Shown here: piece by piece, positions 4,164 to 22,253 of the stretch
How positions within the stretch are numbered: position 1 is the first letter of the stretch
How the letters are laid out: every line of letters begins with the position of its first letter
Virus record (IMG/VR): IMGVR_UViG_3300012971_000005
Location: 1-54,684 of that record
Length of the DNA: 54,684 nucleotides
Source of the DNA: a virus
Lineage: Duplodnaviria; Caudoviricetes
Strand: one strand, 5' to 3'
Position numbers and translations under genes: made by a program
Notes under the pieces: model-generated
What the model was told of the DNA's origin: nothing
The model's database searches: none
The model's input: only the letters and a program-made list of their open reading frames with translations

Positions 4164-4380
4164 GAGACGTGTTGACAAAAAAAACAGTGTTGACAAGAAA
4201 AACAGTGTTGACAGTGTTGACATTTTTTAGTACAAAGAGACTAGAAAAAAGTAAAATAGTAATATGCCGGAAATGTCAACACTGTCAACGCTGTATACAC
4301 ATCTATAAAATAGCGTGTTGACAGGGTTTTTATTCATTTTTTCAATTACTTAAGGCCAATGTCAACGCTGTAAACAGGTG
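4164..4380. other. Putative replication origin: AT-rich region with (CAG)TGTTGACA iterons in both orientations
   Basis: Direct copies near 4169, 4185, 4203, 4212 and 4313; inverted TGTCAAC(A/G)CTG copies near 4274, 4283 and 4360; lies directly after the primase-helicase gene. Confidence 0.7.
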
Positions 4381-4714
4381 GTCTTATGCGCGCGTGAAGA
4401 CGTCTTCACATGTGAAGACTTATATATATAAGACGGGAGAAGAGGATGAATCGGCGACACAATGAAAAAATTAAAGTAAAGGATAAATAAATGTACTTAT
4501 CACAGTGGGGAGAACCACCGACTATCAACTGGGATATCGCCAAGGGCACACCGCCCCCAGGGCAACAGTCCTTGCTGTAAGGCACGACAACAAAATCCTT
4601 GCATCCCAGTATTGAGGATATTACAATCATTGTCGATATTGCTGGCCCACCGTGGGCCGCAAGCATCGCCAAACCGACGAACCGACGAACCGCGTTCACC
4701 GAAAGGACATTCCC

Positions 4715-5386
4715 ATGGTACAGTTTGTCTACAACCCGCCTTCTTTCAACGACGTCTCCAGTCTCACGCCGGGCTGGCATCCGGCCTTCCTCCTCGACAT
4801 TGAAGACATCGAAACGCCGCTCCATTTCAAGTCGCACGAGAAGTATCCACGCTCGCGCCGCTGGCGTCTGGCGGTCTGGGAAACCGACCTCTTGATTGAC
4901 CAGCAAGTGACGCCCGAACGCCAGAGCGCCCTGAGTTCAAGTGCGTTTGCACCGGCGTACACCCGCACCGATGGCCAGCACGTCCAGGCCGCCAAGGCCT
5001 ACAAATGGACCGAGGCGTTACTGGGGCGCCAAATCGTGCCTGGAGAAGTGATCGACCTCTCAGCCCTCATGCCGCTGGCGTGTCGCGTCGAGGTCGAGCG
5101 CAAAAACGAATACGCCAATATTACGGCCATCTCCCGCTATCCTGAACTGGCGTCGAAGCTGACACCCGGCCTGCGGCAATACCTGGCCGAGTTCCTCGGA
5201 ACGTTTAGCGACCAGACGAACCAAGCACCGCGCTATCAGAGCCCTCCTGTAGCCCAGGCAGCGACACCGACAGCGCCGCCGCCGGTCCAGCCCGGCCTGC
5301 AAAGCTGGGGCACGCCCGGCCCCCGGACCACGCCTGCCCCGGCATCACCCGCAGCACCTGCTGGGCCGAACACGCCACGCTGGTAG
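4715..5386 (+). CDS. Probable single-stranded DNA-binding protein
   Basis: Located in the replication module; beta-rich N-domain; long Pro/Ala tail ending in W; GAAAGGA RBS. Confidence 0.5.
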   Translation: MVQFVYNPPSFNDVSSLTPGWHPAFLLDIEDIETPLHFKSHEKYPRSRRWRLAVWETDLLIDQQVTPERQSALSSSAFAPAYTRTDGQHVQAAKAYKWTEALLGRQIVPGEVIDLSALMPLACRVEVERKNEYANITAISRYPELASKLTPGLRQYLAEFLGTFSDQTNQAPRYQSPPVAQAATPTAPPPVQPGLQSWGTPGPRTTPAPASPAAPAGPNTPRW

Positions 5387-5399
5387 GAAGGAGACCACG

Positions 5400-5891
5400 A
5401 TGGCCAGAGATATGGAACAAGATTTCTACGTCGTGCAGGTGCCCCGTACTGATCCAGAATGGGCCGCCATGTGGCAAAAAATTCCGCGTTACCTCGATGG
5501 AATGAGCTTCGAGTATCGTGGGACGTTCCAGCGTACCGATGGCTCCTATGCTCATGACTTTGAGACGGCGAGCACACACAGTTGGGGCTCATACGTGGTT
5601 CCAGCTTCAGCGTCCTGGCAGCCAGGGATCAGCCAGCGCTTGACGGAGGAGGTATCTCCTAGCGCAGAGTTAGAGCCAGAGTTGGAGGCAGAGTTTGTGG
5701 AGCTGATGACGGCATCCTGGCCAGATGTGCTAGAGGTTTTGGCGTGTAAGGGGCACAAACCGGCGGAACGCGGACACTATCTATGTGAGACCTGCTTGGA
5801 TGCGATGACTGATGACGTCGTCATGGTGGCAGGGCGGCAGCAGGCGCAGTGCGCGGTGTGTCGGCGTGCGGGGACCGGAGGGCAAATATGA
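5400..5891 (+). CDS. Hypothetical protein with C-terminal Cys/His zinc-finger-like motifs
   Basis: AGGAG RBS; CxxH, CxxC and CxxC. Confidence 0.65.
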   Translation: MARDMEQDFYVVQVPRTDPEWAAMWQKIPRYLDGMSFEYRGTFQRTDGSYAHDFETASTHSWGSYVVPASASWQPGISQRLTEEVSPSAELEPELEAEFVELMTASWPDVLEVLACKGHKPAERGHYLCETCLDAMTDDVVMVAGRQQAQCAVCRRAGTGGQI

Positions 5892-6097
5892 ACGAGATCG
5901 AGTCCAAAAATCCGTGCCCCTTGAAGGTGGGCGACACCTTTACCATGGCAGGCAGCTATCAGCGGCGGAGCTGGTGGCAATGGCTGACCCGCCAGCCGCA
6001 GCGGCTTGTGGTCTATCAGGTGAGGGGGGCAGTGGGGCATGATCCATCGCCGAGTGCTCCGAGCCCCCCCCGCTGTGAGAGACCAGGAGGAGGATGA
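5888..6097 (+). CDS. Hypothetical protein
   Basis: ATGA overlap with the upstream gene; GGAGG RBS. Confidence 0.4.
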   Translation: MNEIESKNPCPLKVGDTFTMAGSYQRRSWWQWLTRQPQRLVVYQVRGAVGHDPSPSAPSPPRCERPGGG

Positions 6098-6560
6098 CTC
6101 ATTGCGCGTCCGCCTGTCTACGGAACCCGATGGCTCGATTTGTCTCGAGTCAGGCTATGACCAGGTCTTTGTGCAGCAACTGAAGCTGGCGCTTCCCCTC
6201 GGGGGGCGTCAGTGGGTCCCAGAGAGGCGGCGCTGGCTGGTTTCGGCGCTGTATGCGCCTGAACTGCTGGCCTTCCTAGCGTCGTGGGGGGCACGGGTGC
6301 AGGACGACCGCGACAGCGGCACCCCCGTGGCGGTGCCGCCGGCCATGCCGGAGGAGCTCAGGCTCGCCTTCGACGCCCTGTTCCTGAGTTACACCGCGCC
6401 CCTGTGTGTGGCGGAGGCGAGTTATAAAGCTCTGGCGAAATACTGGCACCCCGACAAAGGGGGCACCGCAGAGGATTTTCACGGCATAGGTGATGCGATT
6501 GGCGTGATACGCCGTTATCTTGATGGGAGTCACGATGACACAGCCGACCCTCAACCGTAA
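6039..6560 (+). CDS. Protein with HARP-like N-terminal domain and C-terminal J (DnaJ) domain
   Basis: GRQWVPERRRWLV in the N-terminal part; YKALAKYWHPDKGG carries the HPD motif. Confidence 0.8.
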   Translation: MIHRRVLRAPPAVRDQEEDDSLRVRLSTEPDGSICLESGYDQVFVQQLKLALPLGGRQWVPERRRWLVSALYAPELLAFLASWGARVQDDRDSGTPVAVPPAMPEELRLAFDALFLSYTAPLCVAEASYKALAKYWHPDKGGTAEDFHGIGDAIGVIRRYLDGSHDDTADPQP

Positions 6561-7230
6561 AAAGATGCTGTCAGCCTGGGACGATGCCCGGCAAGCCCGC
6601 TACCGGGCGGCGCATCCGGAGGAGACCCTGACCTTGACGTTTCTCCTTGATGCCTCGCCGTCCATGCAGGGCCAGCCTGCCTGCGACCTGCGTCGGAGCT
6701 TTAACCTGTATATGTGCTGGTTGCAGCGGCAGGCGCCCCCCCTATCGATGGCTGCCGTGCGCTGCTTTTCTTCGTACCTGGACCCGTACAGCGCCGTGCC
6801 CCTTGGCCAGCTAACGCCCTTGGATGAACGCACCTACGATCCCTCGAGTGGCGATGGCACAGCGCTCTACCGTGCCATCGGCGAGACCTGTAGCGCCATC
6901 GCCACCGGTCGCAGTCGTGGGCAGCAGGTCCTGGTGGTTTTTACGGATGGTCTCGACAACAGCAGTCCATGCTATGGTTGGAGTCTGGAGAACACCCGTG
7001 ACGTGTTGAGCGGGCTCCTCAGGAGAGAGGGCTGGCTGGCCGTTTTCCTGGGAGCCTTTCCGCAGGCCTTAGAGATGGGGCTCCGTCTGGGATTCCACGA
7101 GGGCAACTGTCTCCTGTTATCCACCGACCAGATTCCCGAGGCGTTTCGCCGCTTAACGGCAGCGACGGAGCGCTATATAGCGGCAGGGCCACATCAGCGC
7201 AAGCTGCTGGCACAGACGGGGGTGTTTTGA
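6535..7230 (+). CDS. von Willebrand factor A (vWA) domain protein
   Basis: MIDAS motif LLDASPSM (DxSxS); GTALYRAIG; VFTDGLDNSS. Confidence 0.85.
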   Translation: MTQPTLNRKKMLSAWDDARQARYRAAHPEETLTLTFLLDASPSMQGQPACDLRRSFNLYMCWLQRQAPPLSMAAVRCFSSYLDPYSAVPLGQLTPLDERTYDPSSGDGTALYRAIGETCSAIATGRSRGQQVLVVFTDGLDNSSPCYGWSLENTRDVLSGLLRREGWLAVFLGAFPQALEMGLRLGFHEGNCLLLSTDQIPEAFRRLTAATERYIAAGPHQRKLLAQTGVF

Positions 7231-7421
7231 TGCGACGCCTTGACACGGAAGCCCGGCAACGTCTGCTCACAGCGTCTGCCACGCTCGAATATTGCGAGAG
7301 CCTGAGTAATCAGGGGCTCGCCGAACTCCTCTATGACAGCATCGTCGTCGAGTTGCCGGTACTCACCGCGGAGTTTGCGCTCCTCTCGACGATTGTGGAT
7401 CGGCTGCGGGAAAGCCCCTGA
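7227..7421 (+). CDS. Hypothetical protein
   Basis: Translationally coupled on both sides. Confidence 0.55.
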   Translation: MMRRLDTEARQRLLTASATLEYCESLSNQGLAELLYDSIVVELPVLTAEFALLSTIVDRLRESP

Positions 7422-7741
7422 TGCTGAGGTGGCTTTTCGCCGCGTGCAGTCTCTGCGTCATCGCGATGGCATGCTGGCGTATACAGGGCCGCACCACGGA
7501 CCACGCCACCGCGCTGCCCCAGTCAGGGGAATACTGGTGTCTCAAGGTCTTGTGGGGGGCAGACGACCCGTTTACCCCGGCGCACCTCTATAGCCCCGTC
7601 CGTATCGTGGAAGTCAAAGAGGGGTGGGTCCGGTCGCGAGATGTGCTCGGGATGGAAGACCGCATGCCCATCACGGATTTAACGGACGTCCGAGCCCGCT
7701 GTCTTGTCCAAAACGCCGTACGGCAACCCCGCGTGCGCTGA
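7421..7741 (+). CDS. Hypothetical membrane-anchored protein
   Basis: TGATG coupling; hydrophobic N-terminus. Confidence 0.55.
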   Translation: MLRWLFAACSLCVIAMACWRIQGRTTDHATALPQSGEYWCLKVLWGADDPFTPAHLYSPVRIVEVKEGWVRSRDVLGMEDRMPITDLTDVRARCLVQNAVRQPRVR

Positions 7742-7768
7742 GAACGGCACGCACCCACGAGGAGAGCC

Positions 7769-8632
7769 ATGCCCATGCACGCGATGGTGTGCGGTGGTGC
7801 CGGCCTGCCCCCGTCACCGGCGGCGCTCGCCTGGCTGCATGGGCACGTACGGGCTTTCGCCCTGCGCCGGCTTATTCTCGGTGGAGCAGTCCGCTGTAAT
7901 AGCACGGTTGAGGCGTGGGCCAACGACGCAGGGATCCCTACGGAGCCTATCCCTACGGACTGGCACCAAGGGCGGGCGCAGGGAGCAATCCGTGCCGCCC
8001 AGTACCTGCGACTGCTGCACCGCTATATGCGTGGTCACCTCTGCCTGCTCGCCCTCCCAGGTGGGGAGGGGACCGCCTACGTGGTGGCTCAGGCCGAGCG
8101 TCTGGGCCTCCCGGTGTATGTCTATACAGAAAGGAATGCTATGTCTCAGATGACAGAGGGCGAAAGCCCGATCCCGATGCTCGAGGATGACATTGCCGAG
8201 GTGCCCGTCCCTGCAACCCTCGCCAAAACGCTCCAGGATGCCCCAGGACAGGCGATCCCGCCGCCGCCCTGGGGGGAACACGAGGCACTCCTGCAGGGCT
8301 TCCTGAGCCATTTACTGGGCAGATTGAATACGGAGGTCCTGAGCAATTCCAGAGATGTGTTAAAAACCCTCGACGCGATCCTGGTGAGCATGCAAGGCTG
8401 GATGACAGCACGGGAGCAGAGTCCGGTGCAGATCGTCGAAGGCGTGGCGAAGGTGCTCAGCACGACCGGGCTCCAGCTCCGTCAGGACCCGTATACCGCG
8501 ACCGTCAAAGCGATGAGCCCGGAAGGATACGCCGTGGAAATCTTTATCGCGAAACAGGACACCGGCGACCTCATTACGTCGCTGACCCTGCTGATGGAGT
8601 GGTTGGTAAAATCAGCCTACAAGCCGCTCTAG
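7769..8632 (+). CDS. SLOG/YspA-like (DUF2493) domain fused to an unknown domain; probable internal start at 8141
   Basis: MVCGG, ILGGA, AWA..AGIP, TDW, ALPGGEGTAYVV..AERLGLPV; GAAAGGA before an in-frame ATG at 8141. Confidence 0.7.
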   Translation: MPMHAMVCGGAGLPPSPAALAWLHGHVRAFALRRLILGGAVRCNSTVEAWANDAGIPTEPIPTDWHQGRAQGAIRAAQYLRLLHRYMRGHLCLLALPGGEGTAYVVAQAERLGLPVYVYTERNAMSQMTEGESPIPMLEDDIAEVPVPATLAKTLQDAPGQAIPPPPWGEHEALLQGFLSHLLGRLNTEVLSNSRDVLKTLDAILVSMQGWMTAREQSPVQIVEGVAKVLSTTGLQLRQDPYTATVKAMSPEGYAVEIFIAKQDTGDLITSLTLLMEWLVKSAYKPL

Positions 8633-9449: not shown

Positions 9450-11579
9450 TTAATCCCCCCCCTCGCGATGCCGCACCTTGCCGGCGGTGATACGGTACAG
9501 GGCCTGCACGTCGCTGTCCTGGAGATACTGCGTGTAGAGGCGCACGTCATCCACCTTGCCGCTGCCGTTGACCACATGGGCGGGCTTATTCCAGCGGCCC
9601 GCCTCAAAGGGCGTGGTCTGGGTCGCCGTGGGCACGCTAAAGGTACTGGTCGAGGTCTGGAGCTGGCCATTCACCCAGATTTTGGCCTGACCGGGGGTGT
9701 TGCCATCTGCCCCCACCGCGATGTGCATCCAATTCCCGATATACGGAGCCAGATTGAAGTAGATCGAGCCGCCGCCCGTGTGCGTGCTATCATCCCACGC
9801 GCCATACTGCCAGTAGAGGTAGCCATCACTGCAGGGGGCACAGACGCCGAACAGATTGGGCGTCGGGCTCGCGGTACCCAGGCTCATGGCGCCCCCCGTC
9901 TGCACCAGGCTCCAGAACACGAGGGTCACTGGTTGGTTGGCGGGCCAGGCAAAGGGCGTCGCCGCGCTCGTTTCGACATGCTCACCGCTCCCGCTGAGCG
10001 CCAGCCCTTGGGGACCGACACGTGCCCCGACATGGCCAGGGAGTGGGGAACCCGTGAGTGTGCCCGGATGACCATTCGCGGTACTATCCGCCGCCACCGT
10101 GCCACTGGCTTCATCCAGTTTCCAGTACAGATAGAGCCCTACTGGGAGGATGTTGATGGGCTGGCCGCCCATCTCCCAGGCGCCCAGGTCAGGACTGGTC
10201 CCGGCGGGTTGGGGCCGTGTCTGCCCACTAAAATCGGTCCCTACGACCGACGTCAAATCCACCCCCTTGCCCAGGGCGGGAGAGGTATTTTGCAATTGGA
10301 ACGAGGCGGCGGTAATGCCCGCCGCCGCTAAATCACTATCTGGAATCGTGGTGCCTGGACCCGTGGCAACAAACTGTGGGTCACTATAGACGATACAGCC
10401 CCCGGCACTGCACAGGTTCGTGTCGATGGTATCCCCACTTTGTCCCGTCCCCATCGTGATCACATCCGACACGGAGCCATTGGAGAGATTATTCCAGCAG
10501 AGATTGTTGCGGATGGTATTGCCACTGCCGCCAGAGAGGAGCGCAATACACTGCTCGTTATTGCCACGGGTCCGCACGATGGTATTGTGATAAATAAAAT
10601 TATTGGACACCGCGGCGCCGCTACAGGAAATCGCCACGACGCCCCCTTTATGTTGGTCCATGGCCAGCCCGGTCCGGGCGACGATATTGTTGTAAAAAGA
10701 GTTGTTGCTCCCCCCGCAGGAGAACAGGACGGCGCCTTGTGTATCATGTAAGTAGTTATTGCGGATGGTGTTGCTGTTGAAGGCGCCATGGTCGGAGTAC
10801 ATGTGCATCGCAAAGCCCGGCACCCGCGCCACTTCGTTATTCTCGATGACGGAATAGCCGCCGGAGAGATACATGCCATAGGTTGCCGTGGCGCCGGACG
10901 TCCAATCGGCTCCGAGATCATGGATATAGTTATTGCGAATCGTCGTGTTCTGCTGGTTATAGCCCTGGCCGAGTCCCAGGGTGAACGTCGTAATATCGGC
11001 CCCCTGGCCCTTGCCGCCCGAAATATCCAGATCGAGATAGCTGATACCATTCGGGCCATCATATTGCAGCGCATGCCCCACACTCCATTCACTCCCGCCC
11101 ACGACGCCAAAGGCCTGCCCATATTGATTGCTCGGCAGCAGGAGGGTCAGGCCCTGGAAGGTCAGATAGTTGGCTGGACGCCCGGTGTCCCCCGTGTTTT
11201 GGGTCGCGGGGCGCGTCCCGGCATGAATGAGGTTGCCCCCACAGCCACTCCAGGTCGCATTATCGACACTGCTCCAGCCCACCACCGCGGCGCCTTTGGT
11301 GGCCGCCTTGATCACGGTTGGATGCGTGGCATCGAGGCCATCCGGGATACTATCCCCCGGAAGACATTCGTTATACGAGCCATTCAGGAGCACGAGCGTA
11401 TCCCCCTGACCGAGGCACCCCACCCCTTTCACGAGACCGCTCACCGGCGTGCCGCTACTGGTCGCGCCGTTGCAGGGATTGGCGCTGGGAGCATTCGGGG
11501 AGGCGTAATAGATCTGCCCTCCCCACCCGGGTGTCTGGAGCAGGACAAGCAGCCCAACTACGAGCAGGAGGCGTCGCAT
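9450..11579 (-). CDS. Signal-peptide-bearing right-handed beta-helix protein with C-terminal LamG-like domain (receptor-binding/depolymerase-like)
   Basis: MRRLLLVVGLLVLLQTPGWG; TIRNNYIHD/IENNEV/FYNNIV repeats; PDLGAWE; YWKLDEASGTVAADS...KVDDVRLY. Confidence 0.8.
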   Translation of the reverse strand: MRRLLLVVGLLVLLQTPGWGGQIYYASPNAPSANPCNGATSSGTPVSGLVKGVGCLGQGDTLVLLNGSYNECLPGDSIPDGLDATHPTVIKAATKGAAVVGWSSVDNATWSGCGGNLIHAGTRPATQNTGDTGRPANYLTFQGLTLLLPSNQYGQAFGVVGGSEWSVGHALQYDGPNGISYLDLDISGGKGQGADITTFTLGLGQGYNQQNTTIRNNYIHDLGADWTSGATATYGMYLSGGYSVIENNEVARVPGFAMHMYSDHGAFNSNTIRNNYLHDTQGAVLFSCGGSNNSFYNNIVARTGLAMDQHKGGVVAISCSGAAVSNNFIYHNTIVRTRGNNEQCIALLSGGSGNTIRNNLCWNNLSNGSVSDVITMGTGQSGDTIDTNLCSAGGCIVYSDPQFVATGPGTTIPDSDLAAAGITAASFQLQNTSPALGKGVDLTSVVGTDFSGQTRPQPAGTSPDLGAWEMGGQPINILPVGLYLYWKLDEASGTVAADSTANGHPGTLTGSPLPGHVGARVGPQGLALSGSGEHVETSAATPFAWPANQPVTLVFWSLVQTGGAMSLGTASPTPNLFGVCAPCSDGYLYWQYGAWDDSTHTGGGSIYFNLAPYIGNWMHIAVGADGNTPGQAKIWVNGQLQTSTSTFSVPTATQTTPFEAGRWNKPAHVVNGSGKVDDVRLYTQYLQDSDVQALYRITAGKVRHREGGD

Positions 11580-11601
11580 ACATGTGCCCTTTCGTGTTTC
11601 G

Positions 11602-13137
11602 TTACTGGAGGATGGCCTCGAAATTCCCAATCACTACCTTGGCCGTGCCGCCCGCCGTGGCAATATTAAAGTCCAGCGAGCAGGGCGCCGTCGGACAGTT
11701 CGCGCCGGCGCTGCCGGGCGTCACCGGTTGCAGGATCGGTTGCCCAGTCAGGGTACAGGTCGCAAAGCTCCCATTGCCGCAGGTGCACGGCCCCGTCACC
11801 ACTGACGTGGCGCTCTGGCCAGTGAGGATGGGCTGAATGGTCAGCGGCGTCGCGCCCTGCACGTCGACTTTACAGGCCAGGGCGAGGATTTTGAGCGGCC
11901 GGCGATACATATTGGTCCAGACGGTCGGCGAATCGTTGCCATCCAGGAGGGGCGGCGACGACGACTCGGGATCGCCCACGAACAGCGAGAAGGGGCGCAG
12001 CTTCAAGTAGTCTTCGGGCGTCCCGTCCCACAACTTCCATTTGGTCGCAGTGGCGTCATACCACACCGTCTTACAGAGCTTCGGCGCAATGGTCACATCA
12101 TCCGTGAGATCGAATTGATTGGCTGCCGCCGAGCCGCTATCCAGTGTCCCCAGGACGACGGGAGAGGTAGGACCCACGTTGCACATATTTTTGATCGTGC
12201 CATCCGAGAGCCCGCCGGAGGCCAACCCGGTAATGCGGCAACTGGTGACCCCACAGGTAATCCCCAGAATCGTGACCGCCCCAAAGGCGGGGGGACCCGT
12301 CGGGTTCCAGTCGTTCGTGGTCGCGCTGGAGAGGGTGACGGCGAGACGACCGGGGAAGGCGAACTGGCCGCTCGCCTTGACGACGGTCGGGTTGGGATAG
12401 GAGCTCCCGAGATCCCCTCCCGCCGCGCCGCTCGGCGGCCCCCCCGAGCCCGTGGGAATGTCGGCCAATTGGAGGTTCCGACAGGTCCAGGCCGCCGGAC
12501 CGCCCGACACCGGGCCAGCCATGACACAGTTGGCATTCACGTTGGCTTTGCTCACGGCAAACACGCCGCTGGTCGTAATCGCCGTCGTCGGTGATACGGT
12601 GAACTCATTGATGGGCATGGTCACCTGGAGGCTGGTCACGGTGCCGGAGCCGGCGCCGGGCGGAGCGGAGTACTGCGTATTCCAGAAGTCCACCATCGAG
12701 GTCTGGCCATTGGTGGTGCTGTCGTCGGTGAGCGTGCCGACGACAAAGCCCGGTGACGGCACGGTGTCGGTCTGATGGCAGCGCCCCCCGATCCCGACCA
12801 CGACCGCACTGCCGCCTTTGCCGGTCGTCGTCGAGTCAAACACGCACGGCGCCTCGCCACTCAGGACATAGACGGCGCTCAAGGCCGTGCCAGCATTGGC
12901 ATTGACGACGAACAGGGGGATGTTGGTATCGCTGGACGTGGCCACCACCAGCTTGGCGCGGCCCCCAGCGCCACCAGGCTGCTTTTTTGCCAGGAAATTC
13001 AACGCGGTCCCTGTGGTCGTGTCATTGGGCAACGAGCTAAAGGACGTATTACTTTTCTGGGCCGAGCAGACGGGTGCCAGACCCAGCATGGCCAGAAGCA
13101 GCGACAAGCATACCCATCGTGGGATAGACATACGCAT
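11602..13137 (-). CDS. Signal-peptide-bearing Cys/Thr/Gly-rich fibre-like protein
   Basis: MSIPRWVCLSLLLAMLGLAPVCSA; fibre-shaft-type motifs GSGTVTSL and GAAGGDLGSSYPNPTV. Confidence 0.7.
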   Translation of the reverse strand: MRMSIPRWVCLSLLLAMLGLAPVCSAQKSNTSFSSLPNDTTTGTALNFLAKKQPGGAGGRAKLVVATSSDTNIPLFVVNANAGTALSAVYVLSGEAPCVFDSTTTGKGGSAVVVGIGGRCHQTDTVPSPGFVVGTLTDDSTTNGQTSMVDFWNTQYSAPPGAGSGTVTSLQVTMPINEFTVSPTTAITTSGVFAVSKANVNANCVMAGPVSGGPAAWTCRNLQLADIPTGSGGPPSGAAGGDLGSSYPNPTVVKASGQFAFPGRLAVTLSSATTNDWNPTGPPAFGAVTILGITCGVTSCRITGLASGGLSDGTIKNMCNVGPTSPVVLGTLDSGSAAANQFDLTDDVTIAPKLCKTVWYDATATKWKLWDGTPEDYLKLRPFSLFVGDPESSSPPLLDGNDSPTVWTNMYRRPLKILALACKVDVQGATPLTIQPILTGQSATSVVTGPCTCGNGSFATCTLTGQPILQPVTPGSAGANCPTAPCSLDFNIATAGGTAKVVIGNFEAILQ

Positions 13138-13140
13138 CTC

Positions 13141-14031
13141 CTAATGGAAGAAAGGAAAGAATTGCCCATGGGCTGACAGCGCCACGGGCGCTGCCCCCAG
13201 CGCCGGCACGGGCGGGAGCAGGTCGGGGACCCCGCGTATCTCTTGCGCGTAGAGGCCTGCCACATCGGCGTCGGTGAGCAAGCGGCCAAACACCATGTAG
13301 CTATCGCCGCTGCCAATCTGGATATTGCCCCCATCGCTGCGGGCGCCCAGACTCCAGGCTTGATTGGGCATGGTCCCGAGCGTGTCATTTTGGATCGGCG
13401 TCAACGCGGCCGGCACGCCATTCAACCAGATATGCATATCCGCCAGATTTTGTGTGCCGCCGTACGTGACGCAGAGGTGATACCACGTCTGCAAGGCCAG
13501 CGTGGCACTGGTGCGCGTCGTGATCGCCAGATTGGCGCTATCGCGCACGTCAAATTCAAGCACCTGACTGGTAATCATGTGCACGGTCACCCCCTTATCG
13601 ACGCTGCCCCCATCCGTGATCACGGTATCCCAGCCGGATTGGCCCGTCGCAAACAGCGTCCACAGGCACAGGCCCACGGGCAGGGTGCCGGTGGTATACC
13701 CCGAATTCACGGGGGTGACGACATAGTCATCGCTGCCATCAAAATTGATCTGGGCATAGCCCCCCAGGTGCGTGCTCGGCCCCCAGCCACTGGTGCTGCT
13801 ATAGCCCATGTTCGTGAGCGTGCCATGATCCAGCGTGCCGGGTACCAGGTCATAGAGCCGTGTGCCGCCGACACTCAAGGGCACCGCACGCCACCAGTGT
13901 TGGAGGCCCCGCAGCAGGGGATGACTCATGTTCGGCTGGAGCGGTGCCCACCCGCCCCCCGGCCATTGCGGCAACGCCGGGAGCGGCAGGAGCAGCCAGA
14001 AGAGCAGGGTGAGGATGAGATAGCGTTGCAT
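13141..14031 (-). CDS. Signal-peptide-bearing LamG/concanavalin A-like protein
   Basis: MQRYLILTLLFWLLLPLPALP; INFDGSDDYV, WYHLCVTY, IWLNG, RLLTDADVAGLY. Confidence 0.8.
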   Translation of the reverse strand: MQRYLILTLLFWLLLPLPALPQWPGGGWAPLQPNMSHPLLRGLQHWWRAVPLSVGGTRLYDLVPGTLDHGTLTNMGYSSTSGWGPSTHLGGYAQINFDGSDDYVVTPVNSGYTTGTLPVGLCLWTLFATGQSGWDTVITDGGSVDKGVTVHMITSQVLEFDVRDSANLAITTRTSATLALQTWYHLCVTYGGTQNLADMHIWLNGVPAALTPIQNDTLGTMPNQAWSLGARSDGGNIQIGSGDSYMVFGRLLTDADVAGLYAQEIRGVPDLLPPVPALGAAPVALSAHGQFFPFFH

Positions 14032-14032
14032 A

Positions 14033-14578
14033 CTATTGTTGCTCTGGAGGTACGGGTGTGAAGGCGCAGCTTGACGTATTGGCGACGTTCTGCGTCGGCA
14101 GCGTTGTCGCGTTCCAGACCGCAGGAATGAAGTAGCGCGTGGGAATCCAGGCCATCCCGGACGCGGTCATCGTCGTATTGGTCGCCGTCTGATCAACCAC
14201 CGTGGTCCCGACCAGCTTCAAGTCACGGCGCTTATCGGCACTGGCCAGAGCGGCATTGGTGGTGCCCAGCGCGCCGTCGGTGTACGTGCCATCGCTCCAC
14301 GCGACATACACTTCCACCTGCGCGCCCGCGACATTGGTCCCCGTGAGGGTGAAGGAGCAGGCCCACATCCATTGGGCAGGGGTACTCCCAGTCCCCATAT
14401 CATGCCTATCGCCCGACTTGCCAGCCAGGGTGCCCACATTCTGCAGCGCCATCACGTGGGTACAGCCGCTGTCGCACCAGGTCACGGGCGTGCCTCTGGA
14501 CGCATACTGTTTGGACGGAGCCGCGATGAGCGTGGCAGGCAGGAGCAGACACAGAAGCAGCGCCAGACATTTTTTCAT
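14033..14578 (-). CDS. Signal-peptide-bearing beta-rich protein
   Basis: MKKCLALLLCLLLPATLIA followed by a Thr-rich beta-sandwich-like body. Confidence 0.75.
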   Translation of the reverse strand: MKKCLALLLCLLLPATLIAAPSKQYASRGTPVTWCDSGCTHVMALQNVGTLAGKSGDRHDMGTGSTPAQWMWACSFTLTGTNVAGAQVEVYVAWSDGTYTDGALGTTNAALASADKRRDLKLVGTTVVDQTATNTTMTASGMAWIPTRYFIPAVWNATTLPTQNVANTSSCAFTPVPPEQQ

Positions 14579-14633
14579 GGTCTTTTCCCCGTCAGCGCAT
14601 AATACACGTAAGTAAGCCTAGGAGAGTGCATCA

Positions 14634-16763
14634 TTAATTCGTGCTCGCTATGAGCTGAAGGCTGCTGGTGTCAGCACTGTAAAGTAAGCCAATGATTACT
14701 TCGTGGGCCGTATCAAGCGGGCACGTCGTTGGCCCCGTGACCGCTGCGCTGTTGACGATATTGGCCGCATAGGCGATGGTCTGCGCCGCCACCGTGCAGC
14801 GCAGCCGCAGCAGGAAGCGATCACCGTCCACCAGCGTGCCCGAGGTGCCCAGCGTCACGGTGCCAGCGGCACCCGACATACTCATCTTGCACTGATTCAT
14901 CGAGCCATTACGCGCACAGTTATAGGTCGTACTGGAGGCGATGGTCTGCACGCCGGTGTCGACGAGATAGGCATTGGTGTCGACCCCCAGCGTCCCTGTC
15001 CCTCCACTCGTTTTCACAAAACCGTTGGTCGTCAGGTTGGCCAGGGCCGCAATCGTCGGCGTCGTGAGAGCAGGACTGGTAGCCTTCACATAGTTACCCG
15101 TTCCCGTTACGGCGATCCCCTGGATGACCGTTGCACTGGCCCACTCTGCCGCCTGTCCTGCGCTCGGCGTTCCCGTATTGGAGACATTGCCTCCCCCCAC
15201 CGTGGCCCAGGTGCCATCGCCGCGCCAAAAGGTGGTAGAAGAGGCGCCCGTCCCCCCGGCCAGATTGGCCGGGGGCAAATTCCCCGTGACGCCGGTAGAC
15301 AGCGGCAACCCCGTTGCATTGGTCAGCACCGCCGCGCTCGGTGTCCCCAGATTCGGCGTCGTGAGGGTGGGACTGGCGCTTTTGACGTAGCTGCCCGTGC
15401 CGGTCACCGTCACGCCTTGAATCGTCGTCACGGTCACCCATTCCGCCGCCTGCCCGGCACTGGGGGTGCCGCTACTCGACACATTGCCCCCCCCTGCGGT
15501 AAAACAACTCCCGCCCTTGACGCATAACTCCCCAGGCTCTGCCGGCAGAAAGTGCGCCCAGTTGTTGGGCATACTCGTGGGGGGAAGGAGATAGCCCTTG
15601 TGCCCCAGCCGGTCCTGCCACGACAGGTAGTTCCCCAGAGAGGCCGCCTGGAGGTTCGTGGCGATGAGTGTATGGCCGGTGGGATTGATGAGCACATTGC
15701 CACTATCCGCGGCCAGCACGCCGCCCTGGTTGTATTGCACATCCCCCGTGACCCCGGCCGGGGTCACGCCCGCGCCCCCGCCCCCGCCCCCACCGGTCCC
15801 CGTACCGCAGGCCGCGCCCGTATCGACCAGATTGAGGTTGCTATCGAGCTGCACACAGTGGCCCGGAGTGAACGGCCCGAGGCCGGTCATGAGCGCATGC
15901 GACGTGCCCACCAGGGTGGTGTCTGGGGGCAGGAGCACCGGCGACGTGGTTTGTGAGTTGTACGTCAGGACCGCCTGTCCTATCCGGGAGGAATACTCGA
16001 AGATCCAGACATCTTCGGTCGTCCCCCCGGTCGTCGCGGTGGGCAGTGCGATCCCGGTATGGGCCGTCCAGAAGCTCCCCCAACTCACGGCACGGGCCAC
16101 GGTGGAATGCGCCCGAAAACGCAGGATCTGACTCGGGCGCACGCTGCCATTCGGATTGTCAATGAGCGTGGCTTGCGCCAAGTCGCTGAGCACGAACACA
16201 TCACAGGTATCGACATTCACCACGAGCGGCGTCGTGGTGGTGGGCTGTGAACACTGGCGCGGGGTGACGCGCGTCTGGGTCACCTCCTGCACATCCGTGG
16301 TCCCGAGGAGCTGTCCCACCGGGGCTGGGCGAGTCGAGACGGCCGCGACCGCGCCTGTCACCGTCGAGACGACCAGACCCGTGGGCAAGGCCCCCAGATT
16401 GACCCCCGACGGGAACAGCGGCGAGGGCTGTGCCAGCAGCAGCGCCGGCCCGACGATGGGCGTCGACAGCACGGGTGGTCGGCACAGCGTTGCCCCCGTA
16501 CTCGATTGCCCATACGCGAGGTCCGTGCTCTGCGTACACTGCGAGCCGATAAACCCGGCAAAGCCCCCGACCCCGTTGGCGGCTTGCAATGTCCCGGCCG
16601 GTCCAATCGCGCCGCCTGCCCCTGTCCCGCCACCGCCCGTGGCCGTGGCCGTCGTGACCACGCCACGGGTACCGGTAGGCGGCACACTCCCGTACACGAC
16701 GGCGGCGTGCGTCTGTGCCGCCATGAGCAGGCAGCAGAGGAGGAGCAGCAGGAAGCGCACCAT
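14634..16763 (-). CDS. Signal-peptide-bearing long tail-fibre-like protein with internal repeat
   Basis: [20 protein letters not shown]; two copies of [17 protein letters not shown]...TGTG.YVK..SP.LTTP; GDVQYN and [10 protein letters not shown] shaft-type motifs. Confidence 0.75.
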
Positions 16764-17233
16764 CAGGGAATTCCCTCAATCGTGACCACCGTGGTATCAG
16801 CGGCCGTACTTCTGATACACCACCACGCTTCTCGACCCTCAGTCCCCAGGAGCACTTGCTCGCCAGCGTTGAGCAGGAGCCCGACAGTCGCCGTCGGCGT
16901 CCCCTGCGGCTTTGACAGGCACCGCATGGGTGCTAGGCCTTTGTTCCACAGCAGTCGAGTACAAGCAGCCGCATTGACGGTCATCACATCTACAGGGGTT
17001 GCACTCACGGGGATGTCACTGCCAGCGCCAACGGTAGAAATCAGGGTCTTGGTCGGAGTACACACTTGAACCGTCTGGGCACTCGCCACCATGGGCACAC
17101 TGCCACCCCCACGACTGATCCCCCGGAAGTACGGCAGGATCCACCAGGACAGCAGCAGCGGCAGGACCACGAACAGGACAAGGACGGCAACGCCCAGGCG
17201 GGCACTGACAGGGTGGAGACGGTGATTGCTCAT
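16763..17233 (-). CDS. Membrane-anchored or secreted small beta protein, paralogue of 44144-44530
   Basis: Hydrophobic N-terminal segment; RC...TPTATVG...AWWCIR...DTTV.TIE.IP. Confidence 0.7.
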
Positions 17234-17315
17234 GATTGTGCTTGCATTCCTCTATTAACGATAATATAATTATTGACGATATTACTCACTCACATGACCT
17301 GAGAGGAGGTCGCAT

Positions 17316-17711
17316 ATGCATGTAGCCTGGTTTCTGCTGATCTGCATCCTCTGCCTCGTCTTCATGGACGGGCGACAGATACGAAAACTCGTGACCGTCG
17401 TGGCCTGCTTGGCCTTTGTAGCGGCCCTGGTCTTGTACGCCGGCCTCCACTTTCTGCCCACGCAGCCGAGTCCAGTGGCCTCCTGGGAAATGCCGCCTCC
17501 CACGCAGGGGCATGATTATTCTCAGGAACTCTATGGCGCGCCGCCTGCACAACAACCAGCGACGCCAGCGTTTGATCCCGAGGCTGTGCTCAATGAGCTC
17601 TATGGACCAGCGCCAGATAGGCAAAAAGTCCAAAAAGACATCTTTGATACCAAGCCAGAGCCCTCTCCCATAGCACAGCACACCCAGCACAGCCAGCACC
17701 GTCGCCGCTAA
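17316..17711 (+). CDS. Membrane protein, putative superinfection exclusion (SieA position)
   Basis: AGGAGG RBS; two hydrophobic segments; opposite strand, directly after the last ejection gene; AT-rich upstream region. Confidence 0.6.
   Translation: MHVAWFLLICILCLVFMDGRQIRKLVTVVACLAFVAALVLYAGLHFLPTQPSPVASWEMPPPTQGHDYSQELYGAPPAQQPATPAFDPEAVLNELYGPAPDRQKVQKDIFDTKPEPSPIAQHTQHSQHRRR
17567..17611. repeat. 45-nt inverted repeat with 19866-19910 (40/45 identical)
   Basis: AGCGTTTGATCCCGAGGCTGTG is identical, followed by 4 mismatches and ATGAGCTCT(A/T)TGGACCAGC. Confidence 0.9.
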
Positions 17712-20356
17712 CGCGCTGAGGCCGGCAGTTCCCACGGCGCTACCGGGCTGGGCTGTGTCGTCAGCGGGCGGTAGGCGGCCGCCTCTGGAAACTCCTGGCG
17801 AAATTCCGCCGCCGCCCCGCCCAAGGCACCGTAGAGACCGGGGGACATCGGCCCCCCGGCCTGCATCCACTGAAGCAACTGGGGCCTCCAGGTCGGTGAC
17901 ACGAGCATGCGCGCCAGGGCATAACTCCCGGCCTCATGCGCTAACCCCAACCCCATAGCGATGCCTCCCGCATGCGGATGCCCGGCCGCCGCCGCCCCTA
18001 CGGCCCCTAGGTACGGCAACAGGCGCAGCCCCGTACGCAGCAACCCCTGTTGCCCGCCCTCCGCGTACTGTTGCATAGCCGGCGTCGGCATGGTCACGGG
18101 TTCCATACGTCTGGGAACTTTGGCATACTCGGCGATGTCGGCCTGAAGCCGGGCATACTCGTCAGGGGGCAGCCATTTTTCCAGGTTCTTCGACTTCGCC
18201 ACCACATTGGCCAGCGCATCGGGATTGAACTCCCACTCACCACCTCTTTGCCGGATAATCGGACCACCCCGGCGCAGCATGTCCCCAAGCGCGCGCGCAC
18301 TTTCCCGTTGTTTCCAGGCTGACAAGGCCGCATCCAGCAAGGGCTTTTCGCCCGGCAACGACTGCGCCAGCGTGTCATGCAGCACGCCATACAGTTCCTT
18401 GGCCGCTTCACGGGTTCTCGCATCGCCACTGCGCGTCAGTTTGCCCACATCTTTCATGACATTGTTATACACGTCGCCCGCCTGGGGCTGTGGTCCCAAC
18501 GCATTGAAGCGCTGCACGAGCTGATCAAGTTGCGGCATATCCCGCAACCTGCTGCCCCACTGCGCCACGGTCTCCTGCACGGGCGTGGGCGAGACGGGTT
18601 TGCCGCCAGCAATATCGCTAAAGCGGTTGTAGAGCCGCTCCACCACATTCGCGCCTGGATCATCCCCAATAAAACGCCCCACGCCTTGTACCGGCGGCGC
18701 CCCGGTCGGATAGACCGGGCGCTCACGATAGATGCTTTCCACAAAGCCCTGGCGCAAAGCGTCGGTCGTGGGCTCCGAAATATACCCCGCTTTATGAGCA
18801 GCATCCGCCAATTCTGGCAACGTTTTGCCAGTCTGGTCATTGATCAACCGGGTAAAGACGCCCTGTTTCCCGACCTCTTTGGGCGCCATGACCTGATACC
18901 ACGGCGCATCAAGGGATTCCCCCGTCAAGCGCACACCGCCCTGTTGTTCAATGAATTGCTGGAGTTCGGGTGCCGTTCCAGGTGCCGGACCCGGCGGCCG
19001 CACGGGCTTCGACGCCCCCGGCCACTGCTGCCCGCCCTGCAAATACGTTGCGCCCTCATCCATCAACCTGGACGAGGCTTCGGCTTCCGTCGTGACTCCC
19101 AGCCGCTCCATGACCTGCTGTGCCGGACTGCCCCCTTGCTGGAGCATATCCAGGTCACGACGTACATCAAAGACGTTACGCGGAGGCATCGTCGGCTGAT
19201 ACGTGCCCGGAAGCGCCTCAGCACGGGCCAGAGCTTGCTCGTTGGCGATATTGGCGGCGCCCCGTGCTGCCGCCTCCCGTTCAGCCGCTAGGAGCAGACG
19301 GCCGGCCTTGGTCAGGGAGAGCACCCCGGCCCGCCCTAAACGAAAAGCATCCGGGACCACCGGGGCAAGCCCCGCGACAACATCGCCCAGGTCCTTCGGC
19401 AGCAGGGTAGGCTCACCAGGCATGAGGCCAAGCGCTTTATTGAGTTGATGGGCGCCGTACGAGCCCAGACCCGCCAGTACTGGTGAGGCTACAGGCGCAA
19501 AGGGGCCGGTAGCCATCCCGGCGGCAGCTCCGCCTACGGTTGCCGCAGTTTCCAGGCCGGTGGCCAGCAGGTGTCGTCCACTCATCGCCGTTGGCGCTAA
19601 AAACTCCTCAACAGCCCTGTTGATCTCTGCACTCCCCGGTCGGCCCGGCGGTCCCGCTGGAGCTGGCTGCGCTCCCGGCATCGAGTACTGGAGCCCAATC
19701 ATCGGGGCTGCTTCATACTTCCCTGGTGGGGTCCCTGGCGCGGCAGGCACCTCAGACGGCTGGGCTGGCGGAGGCGTGGGCGTGGGCACCGGAGGTGGCG
19801 CTGGCGCTGTTGGAGGCATGCCTGGTTGGGCTGGTTGGGCTGGTTGGGCTGGTTGGGCTGGTTGGGCTGGTCCAAAGAGCTCATCATACACAGCCTCGGG
19901 ATCAAACGCTTTCGCGACTTGTGCTCCTCCTCCCAGGCTGGCCGCCTGCATGCGGTAACGCCCCAGCACGTTCCCGGCAAAGTTGGGATCACTCCCCCCG
20001 TTATAGCGTTGCAGGGCTTGCGGCACATTGCCTTTGGTCTGCGCCAGTAAATCCTTAAAATAGGCAATGCCGGCCGGTGTACTCAGCGTGGGATCAGCCC
20101 GCGAGACATCATCTGGAGGTTGCCCATAATCCTGCCCCGTGGGCTTTGTCACCTGAAACAAGCCCACCACGCCTGTCGGGCTCTTCGCCGTTGGCACAAA
20201 CCGGGATTCCTGATGGGCCAGAGACAGCATCAGCGCCGGATCCATGCCCTGTTTGCGCGATTCATCGATAATCAGTTGGCGTACCTTCCCCGTGGTCCAG
20301 CCTGGGGCGTCAGGGTTAAACAGATCGTCAAAGACGGCATTCGCATCGAAGGGCAT
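17708..20356 (-). CDS. DNA ejection protein (gp16-like position) with N-terminal lytic transglycosylase (SLT) domain
   Basis: LAHQESRF, GVVGLFQV, AGIAYF, ALQRYNGG; PAQ repeats at 19822-19866; hydrophobic Gly/Ala segments. Confidence 0.8.
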   Translation of the reverse strand: MPFDANAVFDDLFNPDAPGWTTGKVRQLIIDESRKQGMDPALMLSLAHQESRFVPTAKSPTGVVGLFQVTKPTGQDYGQPPDDVSRADPTLSTPAGIAYFKDLLAQTKGNVPQALQRYNGGSDPNFAGNVLGRYRMQAASLGGGAQVAKAFDPEAVYDELFGPAQPAQPAQPAQPAQPGMPPTAPAPPPVPTPTPPPAQPSEVPAAPGTPPGKYEAAPMIGLQYSMPGAQPAPAGPPGRPGSAEINRAVEEFLAPTAMSGRHLLATGLETAATVGGAAAGMATGPFAPVASPVLAGLGSYGAHQLNKALGLMPGEPTLLPKDLGDVVAGLAPVVPDAFRLGRAGVLSLTKAGRLLLAAEREAAARGAANIANEQALARAEALPGTYQPTMPPRNVFDVRRDLDMLQQGGSPAQQVMERLGVTTEAEASSRLMDEGATYLQGGQQWPGASKPVRPPGPAPGTAPELQQFIEQQGGVRLTGESLDAPWYQVMAPKEVGKQGVFTRLINDQTGKTLPELADAAHKAGYISEPTTDALRQGFVESIYRERPVYPTGAPPVQGVGRFIGDDPGANVVERLYNRFSDIAGGKPVSPTPVQETVAQWGSRLRDMPQLDQLVQRFNALGPQPQAGDVYNNVMKDVGKLTRSGDARTREAAKELYGVLHDTLAQSLPGEKPLLDAALSAWKQRESARALGDMLRRGGPIIRQRGGEWEFNPDALANVVAKSKNLEKWLPPDEYARLQADIAEYAKVPRRMEPVTMPTPAMQQYAEGGQQGLLRTGLRLLPYLGAVGAAAAGHPHAGGIAMGLGLAHEAGSYALARMLVSPTWRPQLLQWMQAGGPMSPGLYGALGGAAAEFRQEFPEAAAYRPLTTQPSPVAPWELPASAR

Positions 20357-20357
20357 G

Positions 20358-22253
20358 TTATTGGATTCCTCTGATGTCGTACCCGCCATTGAACAAGTAT
20401 TGTTTGAGTTGCTCGCGCGTCAACGGTGGTTGTCCAAGCTGCGCCCGACGTGTCTGCGTCACATTCCACAAGTCATTAAAATTGCTCTGGCTCATGGGGC
20501 CTTTGGACGGTGCCGGCCGCTGGTAAGCCCCCGCCTCTACTGGTGTCCGCACGTCAGGCGCGACGGCTTCCCCCCGGACCAGGGGATTGTTCCGATATTG
20601 GTCCAAAAATGCCCCACGCCGCTTCTCATAGGTTTCTTCCGCCGCCTTATAGAGTTCCGCACTCTGCGACGCCAGTTGCCGCCGTTGCTCGTCCCCCAGA
20701 GTCCCACCACGCGAGAGCGTTTCCCAAAATTTGCCAAAGCGCTGCTCAAGAGAGCCAATTTGCTCGACGGTCGGTTCCCCCGTGAGGCGTGTACTGAGCG
20801 GATTGCTCAAATGCACAAAGGCCCGCACCAGGCTCTTATCCGCCGCGTTCCGATTGGTGGCTGCCACCGGACCAACGGACGCCTGCACTTGCCGCATGGC
20901 GTCCACCATGGTCGGAAACGGGCCAATATCTTTGACATACTGCTCATGCGCCGCCCTCTCTTCCTCATTGCGGAATTTGATGGCCGCAATATCCCGGATG
21001 GGTTCACCGCCCGGCCCTAGCAACGGTTGTGCCGTGCTGGGGACAGTCGGAGCCCCGGCTCCGCCGCCAGAGGGAGGCACATTGGCCCCAGGATACACAG
21101 GCTCCCGTTGACGGTATCCGTATATATCCGTCCCATAGCCCGTTTTGCGTAACTCTTCCCGCCGCACCAGCGCCTCTTCCGCCGGCGGCGTCAACCCGCC
21201 CCCCACGCTCCCCGGCGCATAGGGCGACGGCGCGCCCGGCGGCAGATACTTATACGTAAACTGAGGCCCGGCCGTGGTGTCGGTCCTGACCAGTTCCCCG
21301 GCCTCACGGCGTTCCTTGAAGCGCTCCGTCCAATTCTTAAACTCGTCATTGGCCCGGCCCCAGGCGGCGATCTGTTGCTCCCCCCGCGTCTTGGCGTCCA
21401 GGGCTTGCGCCGCCAGCGCCCCGACCATCTGCGGGTTGTACTGGTCCGGCCACTGCTGCGCTCCTGGAATACCCCGTGCGACCGCCACGGCACGGGCTTG
21501 CTGCCACGCTGCCGGACGTTCGGCTTCCGGGCGCGACATGACGGAATCCGCGATCTGCGCCATCGCATTGTTGGACGCAATCGCAAAGTCTAACTGGCCC
21601 CTTTGCTGCTCCATCAGATGTTTATCCATGGTCATGAAGCGGTCGATAATCGGCCCGACCACCTCCGGATGCCCCTGCATATACATGCGGTCATAGAGCT
21701 GCCGCTGGCGCTGCACGTCAGCCATGATGTCACGCTGCGGTGCCGGTTGAGCCTGGGCTTGCGGCTGCGGTGTCGGTTGTCCCTGGGGCTGTGGTGGAGC
21801 TTGCGGCTGTGGTGCTGTCTGTGGTGGCGTTGTTGCACGTGGAACACTGGGAGGGGCGGGAGACAGCCCAAGGTCTGCCTGGTAGGGATTGAGCTGTTCA
21901 GGAGCTAAACTGGGCTGTGGCCCCGGCTGTGCGCCCGGCACCTGCACCCCGGCCACTGGTTGCTGCGCAGCAGGGGTGGCCGGCATCACGGTACCGCCTG
22001 ACGCCCCCATGGGAGCATTAGACGGTCCCTGCCCACTGCGATAGGCAAGGAGCTGCTGAAAGGCGCCCTGGGGATCTTGCAGATTACGGTAAGTCTGCAT
22101 TTTAAGCCCCAGGTCCTGTAACTGGAGATTGCGCAACGCCGCCTGACTTTGGAGGTTCTGCAATTGTGCCACAGTAAGCAGGACCTGGCTGGGATCAGAC
22201 CCCTGGAATTGAGGAGGGCGGACCTGCAAGCTTATGTCTGGTTGGAGTGGGAT
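20358..22253 (-). CDS. DNA ejection protein (gp20-like position); start possibly a non-canonical ATC
   Basis: Gln/Pro/Ala-rich and helical; lies between the other two ejection genes; AGGAGG 6 nt before an in-frame ATC at 22253. Confidence 0.7.
   Translation of the reverse strand: MPLQPDISLQVRPPQFQGSDPSQVLLTVAQLQNLQSQAALRNLQLQDLGLKMQTYRNLQDPQGAFQQLLAYRSGQGPSNAPMGASGGTVMPATPAAQQPVAGVQVPGAQPGPQPSLAPEQLNPYQADLGLSPAPPSVPRATTPPQTAPQPQAPPQPQGQPTPQPQAQAQPAPQRDIMADVQRQRQLYDRMYMQGHPEVVGPIIDRFMTMDKHLMEQQRGQLDFAIASNNAMAQIADSVMSRPEAERPAAWQQARAVAVARGIPGAQQWPDQYNPQMVGALAAQALDAKTRGEQQIAAWGRANDEFKNWTERFKERREAGELVRTDTTAGPQFTYKYLPPGAPSPYAPGSVGGGLTPPAEEALVRREELRKTGYGTDIYGYRQREPVYPGANVPPSGGGAGAPTVPSTAQPLLGPGGEPIRDIAAIKFRNEEERAAHEQYVKDIGPFPTMVDAMRQVQASVGPVAATNRNAADKSLVRAFVHLSNPLSTRLTGEPTVEQIGSLEQRFGKFWETLSRGGTLGDEQRRQLASQSAELYKAAEETYEKRRGAFLDQYRNNPLVRGEAVAPDVRTPVEAGAYQRPAPSKGPMSQSNFNDLWNVTQTRRAQLGQPPLTREQLKQYLFNGGYDIRGIQ

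Follow-up and report, generated by a model that had tools for sequence, protein, structure and literature searches.

A Leader-Bearing Cassette of Fibre- and Lectin-Type Genes in a Soil Podovirus: Possible Periplasm-Matured Accessory Appendages

The window analysed here is a complete virus record of 54,684 bp with direct terminal repeats (IMG/VR record IMGVR_UViG_3300012971_000005), the genome of a short-tailed (podovirus) soil phage. Positions 9450-17233 are filled by a cassette of six tightly packed minus-strand open reading frames (ORFs), named A to F, of which F and E overlap by 1 base. The six proteins begin with leader-like segments and have even numbers of cysteines, and they are very likely, judging from these sequences, exported by Sec and disulfide-bonded. 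As a tentative reading, which we place close to an even chance, they would be accessory appendages that mature in the periplasm and join the particles at lysis, not the primary tailspike.

The predicted members of the cassette are a fibre (E), a head-fibre-like protein (B), an enzyme or lectin with a beta-helix and LamG (A), a LamG lectin (C), a beta-rich protein (D) and a putative membrane-anchored protein (F). Their lengths are given in amino acids (aa).

9450-11579, minus: A, 709 aa from the ATG that gives MRRLLL; leader MRRLLLVVGLLVLL, beta-helix-type region, C-terminal LamG; 12 mature Cys
11602-13137, minus: B, 511 aa; leader ending CSA↓Q (the arrow marks the predicted cleavage site), domains at residues 29-156, 260-376 and 377-511; 14 mature Cys
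13141-14031, minus: C, 296 aa; leader MQRYLILTLLFWLLL, LamG lectin-type domain; 2 Cys
14033-14578, minus: D, 181 aa; leader MKKCLALLLCLLL with predicted cleavage before a conserved APSKQY, small and beta-rich; 4 mature Cys
14634-16763, minus: E, 709 aa; leader followed by a modular, fibre-type protein that contains Gly-rich stretches and fibre repeats in tandem; 12 mature Cys
16763-17233, minus: F, 156 aa; 12-residue basic n-region, hydrophobic span of about 21-24 residues, C-terminal domain of about 100 aa; 4 Cys

Leader segments and cysteine pairing

The first-pass annotation of this DNA had claimed a signal-peptide-like start for all six ORFs, and every N-terminus that it quoted was found in place. 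Leaders were called by our own rules and by inspection, without SignalP or DeepTMHMM. A Sec leader cleaved by signal peptidase I was expected to show a short, basic n-region, then a hydrophobic h-region of about 7-15 uncharged residues, with small side chains at -3 and -1. In A to E, a brief basic n-region precedes a hydrophobic, charge-free core of 11-20 residues, and the residues at -3/-1 are small. The Sec pattern was matched by A, B, D and E, with sites at CSA↓Q in B, LIA↓A in D and THA↓A in E, and C was weak at -3/-1, with a poor site at LPA↓L or ALP↓Q. F is probably a signal anchor or membrane anchor because of its long hydrophobic span; a possible ASA↓Q site lies 20 residues beyond that span. 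No lipobox (L-[AS]-[GA]-C at the leader end, the mark of superinfection-exclusion lipoproteins of the T5 Llp and Cor type) was seen on inspection of D, F or their homologues.

The first rule flagged leaders in 6/6 cassette ORFs and in 3/54 of the other window ORFs. A permissive rule, which tries every in-frame start, was applied to the window and to four related sequences (G005, G001, G002 and L020) and flagged 27/30 cassette ORFs versus 25/222 others. The enrichment of leaders is therefore not due to chance. Of the three ORFs that the permissive rule missed, two have leaders devoid of Lys and Arg, and the third is a homing-endonuclease gene lying within the G001 cassette but not a member of it. 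Counted among the 27 is the E protein of L020; the rule picked an incorrect internal site there, even though the actual N-terminus plainly looks like a leader.

The first-pass annotation had made its proposal depend on conservation of the leaders, and a leader was present in every complete homologue inspected. The leaders keep their form and diverge in sequence, as seen in A (6/6 fetched), B (27/27 full-length), E (4/4 complete) and D (3/3). For A, 12 homologues were found, and all six that were fetched had differing leaders right before a conserved T/I-YYA motif; in the window, an alternative TTG start lies at 11630, 17 codons upstream of the ATG. The D homologues of G001 and G005 were 73-74% identical to D, with diverged leaders. 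E homologues with leaders also included forms of 2097 aa (G001) and 1378 aa (G002) after correction of the start. The same correction revealed leaders in the C relatives of G005/L021, L018, L019 and L020. A distant C relative without a leader is a LamG protein of G002 (11619-12494, L027), which shares the motif xLxRGLQxWW and lies inside the myovirus head-tail module. Thus, the C family occurs both with and without a leader.

The B family was the largest sample. An exhaustive profile search returned 1785 proteins at E <= 0.001, and from the 150 matches listed, 27 full-length homologues were used (489-525 residues, aligning from the N-terminus). Fragments and long multi-domain fibre proteins were left out; the long proteins share inner modules only, and many of them start without a hydrophobic segment. 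A small-x-small↓Gln site was found in 26/27 of the full-length homologues, directly ahead of a variable stretch.

Gln thus stands right after the predicted cleavage site in nearly all of these B homologues (P0014-P0053 range), and by inspection it does so in many other cassette proteins of G001, G005, L019 and L020. Leaders of this Q-rule type have been called exclusive to Bacteroidetes (PMC10653852). The Gln could point to the host, or it could be a trait of this family. A seventh leader protein lies outside the block at 44144-44560 (minus strand), between the terminase and portal regions; it reads MKALIGSMWLSLTCVSLVLA↓QTG and is 65% identical to its counterpart in G005.

The mature cysteine counts of A to F were 12, 14, 2, 4, 12 and 4. 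Even counts were also found in 27/27 B homologues (range 8-18) and in 4/4 E homologues, and among other ORFs they were found in 17/31 for the window, 20/35 for G001 and 40/77 for G002. In the B alignment (28 rows), eight variable pairs of Cys columns showed identical patterns of presence, i.e., the two members were gained or lost together. D of the window carries the extra pair C35 and C39, and both relatives (G001 and G005) have Ser at the two positions. The Cys content of recognised virion proteins was 0-0.64%, with none in 5/9, versus 0.75-3.2% for the cassette.

Sec export and disulfide bonding are well supported because the leaders and cleavage motifs are conserved, the Cys counts are even and cysteines are gained or lost in pairs. 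The corresponding proposal of the first-pass annotation, that these proteins are exported and oxidised in the periplasm, is thereby strongly strengthened.

Predicted folds, the leaderless fibre and related genomes

The B model, built with 28 sequences, reached a predicted local distance difference test score (pLDDT) of 80.9 and showed three domains, with residues 29-156 at pLDDT 86-96. In structural comparison of this first domain, the top nine rows were all filled by capsid decoration or head-fibre-base chains (Z 12.2-10.1), and the next kind of protein followed at Z 9.0. This agrees with the jelly-roll base of about 115-125 residues that is typical of such proteins. The matches were the decoration proteins of HFTV1, Sf11, FCWL1, T1, TW1 and BB1 and the base of phi29 gp8.5. 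For HFTV1 (8qsy), Sf11 (9ocb), phi29 gp8.5 (6qyy), T1 (9kzj) and TW1 (5wk1), Z was 10.4-12.2, with a root-mean-square deviation of 2.5-3.5 A over 113-123 residues. Behind its base, B has a fibre and a distal domain, as phi29 gp8.5 does. However, the known decoration and head-fibre bases have no signal peptide and bind the capsid in the cytoplasm, whereas B carries a conserved, probably cleavable leader and 14 paired Cys; the sequence identity is 8-14%. In this model, the base of B has the capsid decoration fold and may bind the capsid.

The other two domains of B also resembled phage appendages. Residues 260-376 matched 6o38 (a chaperone-substrate complex), the Solidus tailspike and the N-terminus of CBA120 TSP4 at Z 7.2-9.0. 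Residues 377-511 form a jelly roll resembling fibre tips and cement proteins at Z of about 7-9, which is close to the level expected of a common fold. A BFVD search with B gave 204 viral matches at E <= 0.001; many bear fibre, collagen-repeat or pectate-lyase names, and the remainder were mostly uncharacterised. In the ESM Atlas, the clusters nearest to D and B were viral, and D leaned weakly toward a cement family; these are leads only. E and B showed no BLASTP similarity. Residues 165-272 of E matched a set of tailspike N-termini and a capsid spike at Z 7.2-8.0, followed by a drop to Z 4.3, in a model that is poor.

The first-pass annotation had described fibre repeats, beta-helix and LamG folds in the mature parts. 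LamG was recovered by Pfam above cut-off in A (LamG_3, 33.5 bits, E 5.7e-8) and in C (LamG_3, 45.1 bits, E 1.5e-11), and the E repeat at residues 458-520 matched 6 phage records. The beta-helix of A rests on a NosD match below threshold (16.3 bits vs a cut-off of 23.6), and relatives of A carry PF13229. Nine Cys are invariant or nearly so in the A family.

The same annotation had taken the six genes for the receptor-binding apparatus at the tailspike position, a premise that the analysis does not support. The head-binding domain was found instead on a leaderless fibre, located between the gp10-like gene and the ejection genes, the tail-needle position.

26557-27744, minus: leaderless tail fibre, 395 aa, 0 Cys; head-binding N-terminus, helical repeats, C-terminal knob

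Residues 2-97 of this fibre matched sequences in the PDB of the 9vyg tail spike (E 2.3e-7), the head-binding domain of the 7eeq tailspike (E 1.6e-6) and 9vyh (E 1.3e-5). Three helical repeats of about 35 residues (DPGExGxExL...QLR) and a knob of about 140 aa follow, and these are common to a few relatives. In total, 250 relatives were found, and most of the 120 listed share the N-terminus only (48-58% identity over 20-25% of the query) and continue into pectate-lyase, beta-helix, S74 or fibre-tip domains. No head-binding domain was found in A to F by Pfam or PHROGs, nor in A, B and E against PDB sequences; the latter searches gave nothing for E, chance-level matches for B and LamG-type matches only for A. 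Since the leaderless fibre carries the head-binding domain, the six cassette proteins are most likely extras and not the primary tailspike.

The tailspikes of the P22 gp9 type, Pam1 (7eeq) and 9vyg/9vyh share with the cassette their distal modules (beta-helix, lectin, fibre repeats), a rapid exchange of modules and a place near the ejection genes. They differ in that the cassette proteins have Sec leaders and disulfides, and the head-binding domain of this phage sits on the fibre at 26557-27744.

Related genomes place the cassette consistently. G005 is a complete sister phage of 54,145 bp with terminal repeats, in which the ejection genes are followed by F, E and then six more leader proteins. 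In L020, a DNA-transfer protein is followed by F and E, and the relatives of A have a pectate-lyase-type N-terminus. In the window, in G005 and in L020, the cassette thus comes directly behind the final ejection gene. F is 83-89% identical in two related podovirus contigs, always directly upstream of E, and neither G001 nor G002 has it. In the myovirus G002, which has genes for capsid, sheath and baseplate wedge, leader-bearing genes of the E, B and A types follow leaderless baseplate and fibre genes. Mature E has an N-terminal module that exists in two types, one shared by the three podovirus contigs and the other, 64% identical, present in G001 and G002.

G001 is a linear, possibly cut IMG/VR record of 67 kb (L013-L016) that has only A, B, D and E in common with the window. 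It also carries TraG/VirD4, TrbI, TrbL, a MobA relaxase, RecT, a primase and homing endonucleases, and its TraG is about 36% identical to TraGs of alphaproteobacterial plasmids. At its contig end, a 1290-aa ORF that precedes the cassette is 47% identical to the leaderless fibre behind the G002 baseplate; the other 31 scanned ORFs of G001 matched no head or tail family in PHROGs. A reading of G001 as a conjugative element without virion genes, in which the cassette would be non-virion, was considered and withdrawn after the fibre match. Because of this match, G001 more plausibly represents the tail end of a myovirus-type element beside genes of a type IV secretion system. It could be a phage-plasmid hybrid, a chimeric assembly or elements that lie side by side.

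Identities between the window and G005 were as follows.

Major capsid protein 96%, portal 96%, gp10-like protein 93%
Leaderless fibre 79%
E 84%, B 83%, F 83%, D 79%, C 32%, A 41%

By these sequence comparisons, the cassette diverges in the manner of the leaderless fibre, with C and A replaced, and the capsid, portal and gp10-like proteins stay at 93-96%.

Attachment to particles and the alternatives

Tailed-phage assembly is wholly cytoplasmic in textbooks. The proposed route for the cassette would differ from this. The six proteins would be made late and sent across the inner membrane by the host Sec machinery; signal peptidase would cut the leader, often before Gln, and the host disulfide machinery would oxidise the proteins as they fold in the periplasm. 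F might hold the others at the membrane as a tether until lysis. Particles built in the cytoplasm, with head, tail hub and one docking fibre, would meet the cassette proteins only when the envelope is breached, and B would then bind the capsid through its decoration-type base, with the other members joining by unspecified contacts. Attachment to the particle, above all, is a step that we infer. We hold it tentatively, because B has a decoration-type base, the position of the cassette is constant, the divergence is like that of receptor-binding proteins and lysogeny genes are lacking. Assembly of a particle from two compartments, which has nearly an even chance of being correct in our view, would be a route not described for Caudoviricetes. 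In the literature searched, as far as the sources were accessible, no tailed-phage precedent for Sec-exported virion appendages was found. A preprint states that the P22 tailspike has no signal peptide, presumably since export is not needed (10.64898/2026.09.13.751334).

If such export and oxidation were routine, virion proteomes of soil phages and predictions of host range would overlook a dependence on Sec, signal peptidase and Dsb. The secretion and Dsb systems of the host would help to determine phage host range, and cytoplasmic recombinant expression of such receptor-binding proteins would fail. Furthermore, particles could be "dressed" after lysis.

Several observations weigh against attachment. 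The E model is poor (pLDDT 41.9), with only two domains fit for comparison and the N-terminus unmodelled. The decoration-type fold is a small trimer-forming beta domain, and the MAT fibres of Bdellovibrio bacteriovorus (PMC10769870) also have a beta-rich domain of about 130 aa directly after the leader, so the fold of B is no proof of capsid binding. A starts directly with an enzyme-like domain and resembles free secreted glycanases, its family shows even Cys counts in just 3/5, and its distant relatives P0006 and P0013 lie on contigs of 372 kb and 78 kb that are possibly cellular. The leaders of some E homologues have no basic residue. No tail-docking domain was recognised in A to F by the searches described above, and the docking sites for a tailspike are already taken by the leaderless fibre. 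A 474-bp spacer (17234-17707), AT-rich immediately upstream of F, separates the SLT gene, the last of the ejection genes, from the cassette, which is therefore possibly its own transcription unit. No close relative was found among GTDB representatives scanned with the B and A alignments, and B had no match in GenBank phages or PLSDB plasmids. A diderm host is deduced only from the SLT protein and, for G001, from the Trb-type genes.

The strongest alternative, a substantial possibility although somewhat short of an even chance, is that the proteins are exported and remain free, as fibres, lectins and glycan-acting enzymes that are built from appendage modules and act on the host envelope or matrix. 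Their possible roles include the masking or destruction of receptors, to block superinfection and keep progeny from sticking to debris, the cutting of exopolysaccharide to let progeny spread, and surface adhesion. Leaders and paired Cys suit any exported protein, and the cassette is extra both in the window, with its leaderless head-binding fibre, and in G002, with its leaderless baseplate fibres. A resembles a secreted enzyme with beta-helix and LamG, its L020 relatives carry the pectate-lyase-type N-terminus, and the spacer before the cassette fits as well. This alternative ranks where it does because the particle has a fibre of its own, A is enzyme-like, and exported fibre-like or leader-bearing precedents exist. 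If the proteins do stay free, they would represent an extensive class, so far unexplored, of secreted lectins and glycanases carried by phages.

Three such precedents were compared. The MAT (mosaic adhesive trimer) fibres (Caulton et al. 2024, PMC10769870) are a multi-member family resembling phage tail fibres, with a signal peptide, the beta-rich domain, a fibre and variable tips, and the architecture of B appears analogous. They differ in that they are encoded by chromosomal genes of the predator and displayed on its surface, and 13/21 have an S74 chaperone-protease domain. The cassette, in contrast, belongs to complete phage genomes, where it stands last in the virion module, and no S74 domain (PF13884) was detected by Pfam in any of A to F. 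WceF of Pantoea stewartii (PMC7949094) is an exported trimeric beta-helix, a glycanase of tailspike fold that acts on exopolysaccharide and would serve as a model for A if A is free. WceF has a Tat leader and belongs to a bacterial exopolysaccharide cluster, whereas A is phage-borne, with a Sec-type leader and a C-terminal LamG. The Q-rule genes of Porphyromonas gingivalis phages (Matrishin et al. 2023, PMC10367356; Szczesniak et al. 2023, PMC10653852) have Sec leaders that expose an N-terminal Gln, as in B and probably F. They are five prophage-borne genes of unknown function, read as modifiers of the host surface, and the parts of those reports available to us mention no link to fibres, the decoration fold or paired Cys.

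Other results fit free proteins less well. The nine best structural matches of the B base are solely capsid decoration and head-fibre proteins, and in both morphotypes, podovirus and myovirus, the cassette occupies the distal end of the virion module. Tyrosine integrase was found in 0/4 records and serine recombinase in 0/2, with positive controls detected and both complete genomes (window and G005) clear, which speaks against a role in lysogenic conversion. PADLOC matched 0/9 proteins at E <= 0.01, and the lipobox was absent as described above. Furthermore, a place on a diderm surface would require a further secretion step, and no gene for such a step was seen.

It is unlikely that the six proteins serve as the main receptor-binding apparatus in place of a conventional tailspike. 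They do occupy the place of P22 gene 9 after the ejection genes and contain fibre, beta-helix and lectin modules. However, the leaderless fibre, conserved in G005, already combines a head-binding domain, shaft repeats and a knob, and the searches named above found no head-binding domain in the six.

That the hydrophobic N-termini are start-codon artefacts or cytoplasmic assembly helices of ordinarily folding fibres is very improbable: the home-made leader calls, the poor site of C, the E leaders without a basic residue and the B inner modules in long fibres that start without a hydrophobic segment (e.g., P0038, P0041 and P0057) would allow it, but leader form is kept despite drift, the small-x-small↓Gln site recurs, even Cys counts hold in all 27 B homologues with gain and loss by pairs, and the cytoplasmic virion proteins of the same phage are nearly free of Cys.

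Gene order and other observations in the window

Gene identities in the window were assigned by PHROGs and Pfam, and the listed head and ejection genes all lie on the minus strand.

44564-47935, minus: large terminase with intein
40797-43160, minus: P22-type portal
34244-35308, minus: scaffold
32917-34155, minus: major capsid protein
28654-30150, minus: gp10-like head-closure protein
23660-25612, minus: DNA-ejection protein
17708-20389, minus: internal virion/ejection protein with N-terminal SLT lytic transglycosylase domain, 893 aa, 0 Cys (Pfam SLT E 5.3e-19; PHROG 342)
1861-8632, plus: replication genes

The SLT gene is the final recognisable virion gene ahead of the cassette. Among the scanned window ORFs, Pfam and PHROGs recognised no endolysin, holin or spanin, and the SLT domain was the sole muralytic domain recognised in the window. 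A scan of the SLT protein against IMG/VR found no relative. The closest portals among GenBank phages were 31-33% identical to the window portal, and no tRNA genes were found in the window.

A consensus scan of the spacer ahead of F gave no convincing promoter or terminator (2 sites vs 2.2 expected, and 5 vs 4.7 expected). The spacer contains a plus-strand ORF at 17316-17711 that encodes 131 aa with hydrophobic segments and finds no match in G005. At the corresponding spot, L020 holds a small membrane ORF that is unrelated to it. The ORF of the window may not be a real gene.

The window genome is heavily colonised by selfish elements. The large terminase measures 1123 aa and has intein-splicing and LAGLIDADG matches, a GIY-YIG homing endonuclease lies between the capsid and neck genes (31874-32809), and a plus-strand ORF at 27899-28657, with relatives in G002 and G005, breaks up the tail genes. 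Three genes of the Ant/Bro type were also observed (22273-23528 and 35520-36461).

Two further minus-strand genes lie near the portal gene on its downstream side. The first (38171-39745) encodes a 524-aa protein with a match to the ART-PolyVal ADP-ribosyltransferase, and the second (40057-40572) encodes a 171-aa protein with a weak Peptidase_M91 match. Both may be candidates for ejected effector-type proteins.

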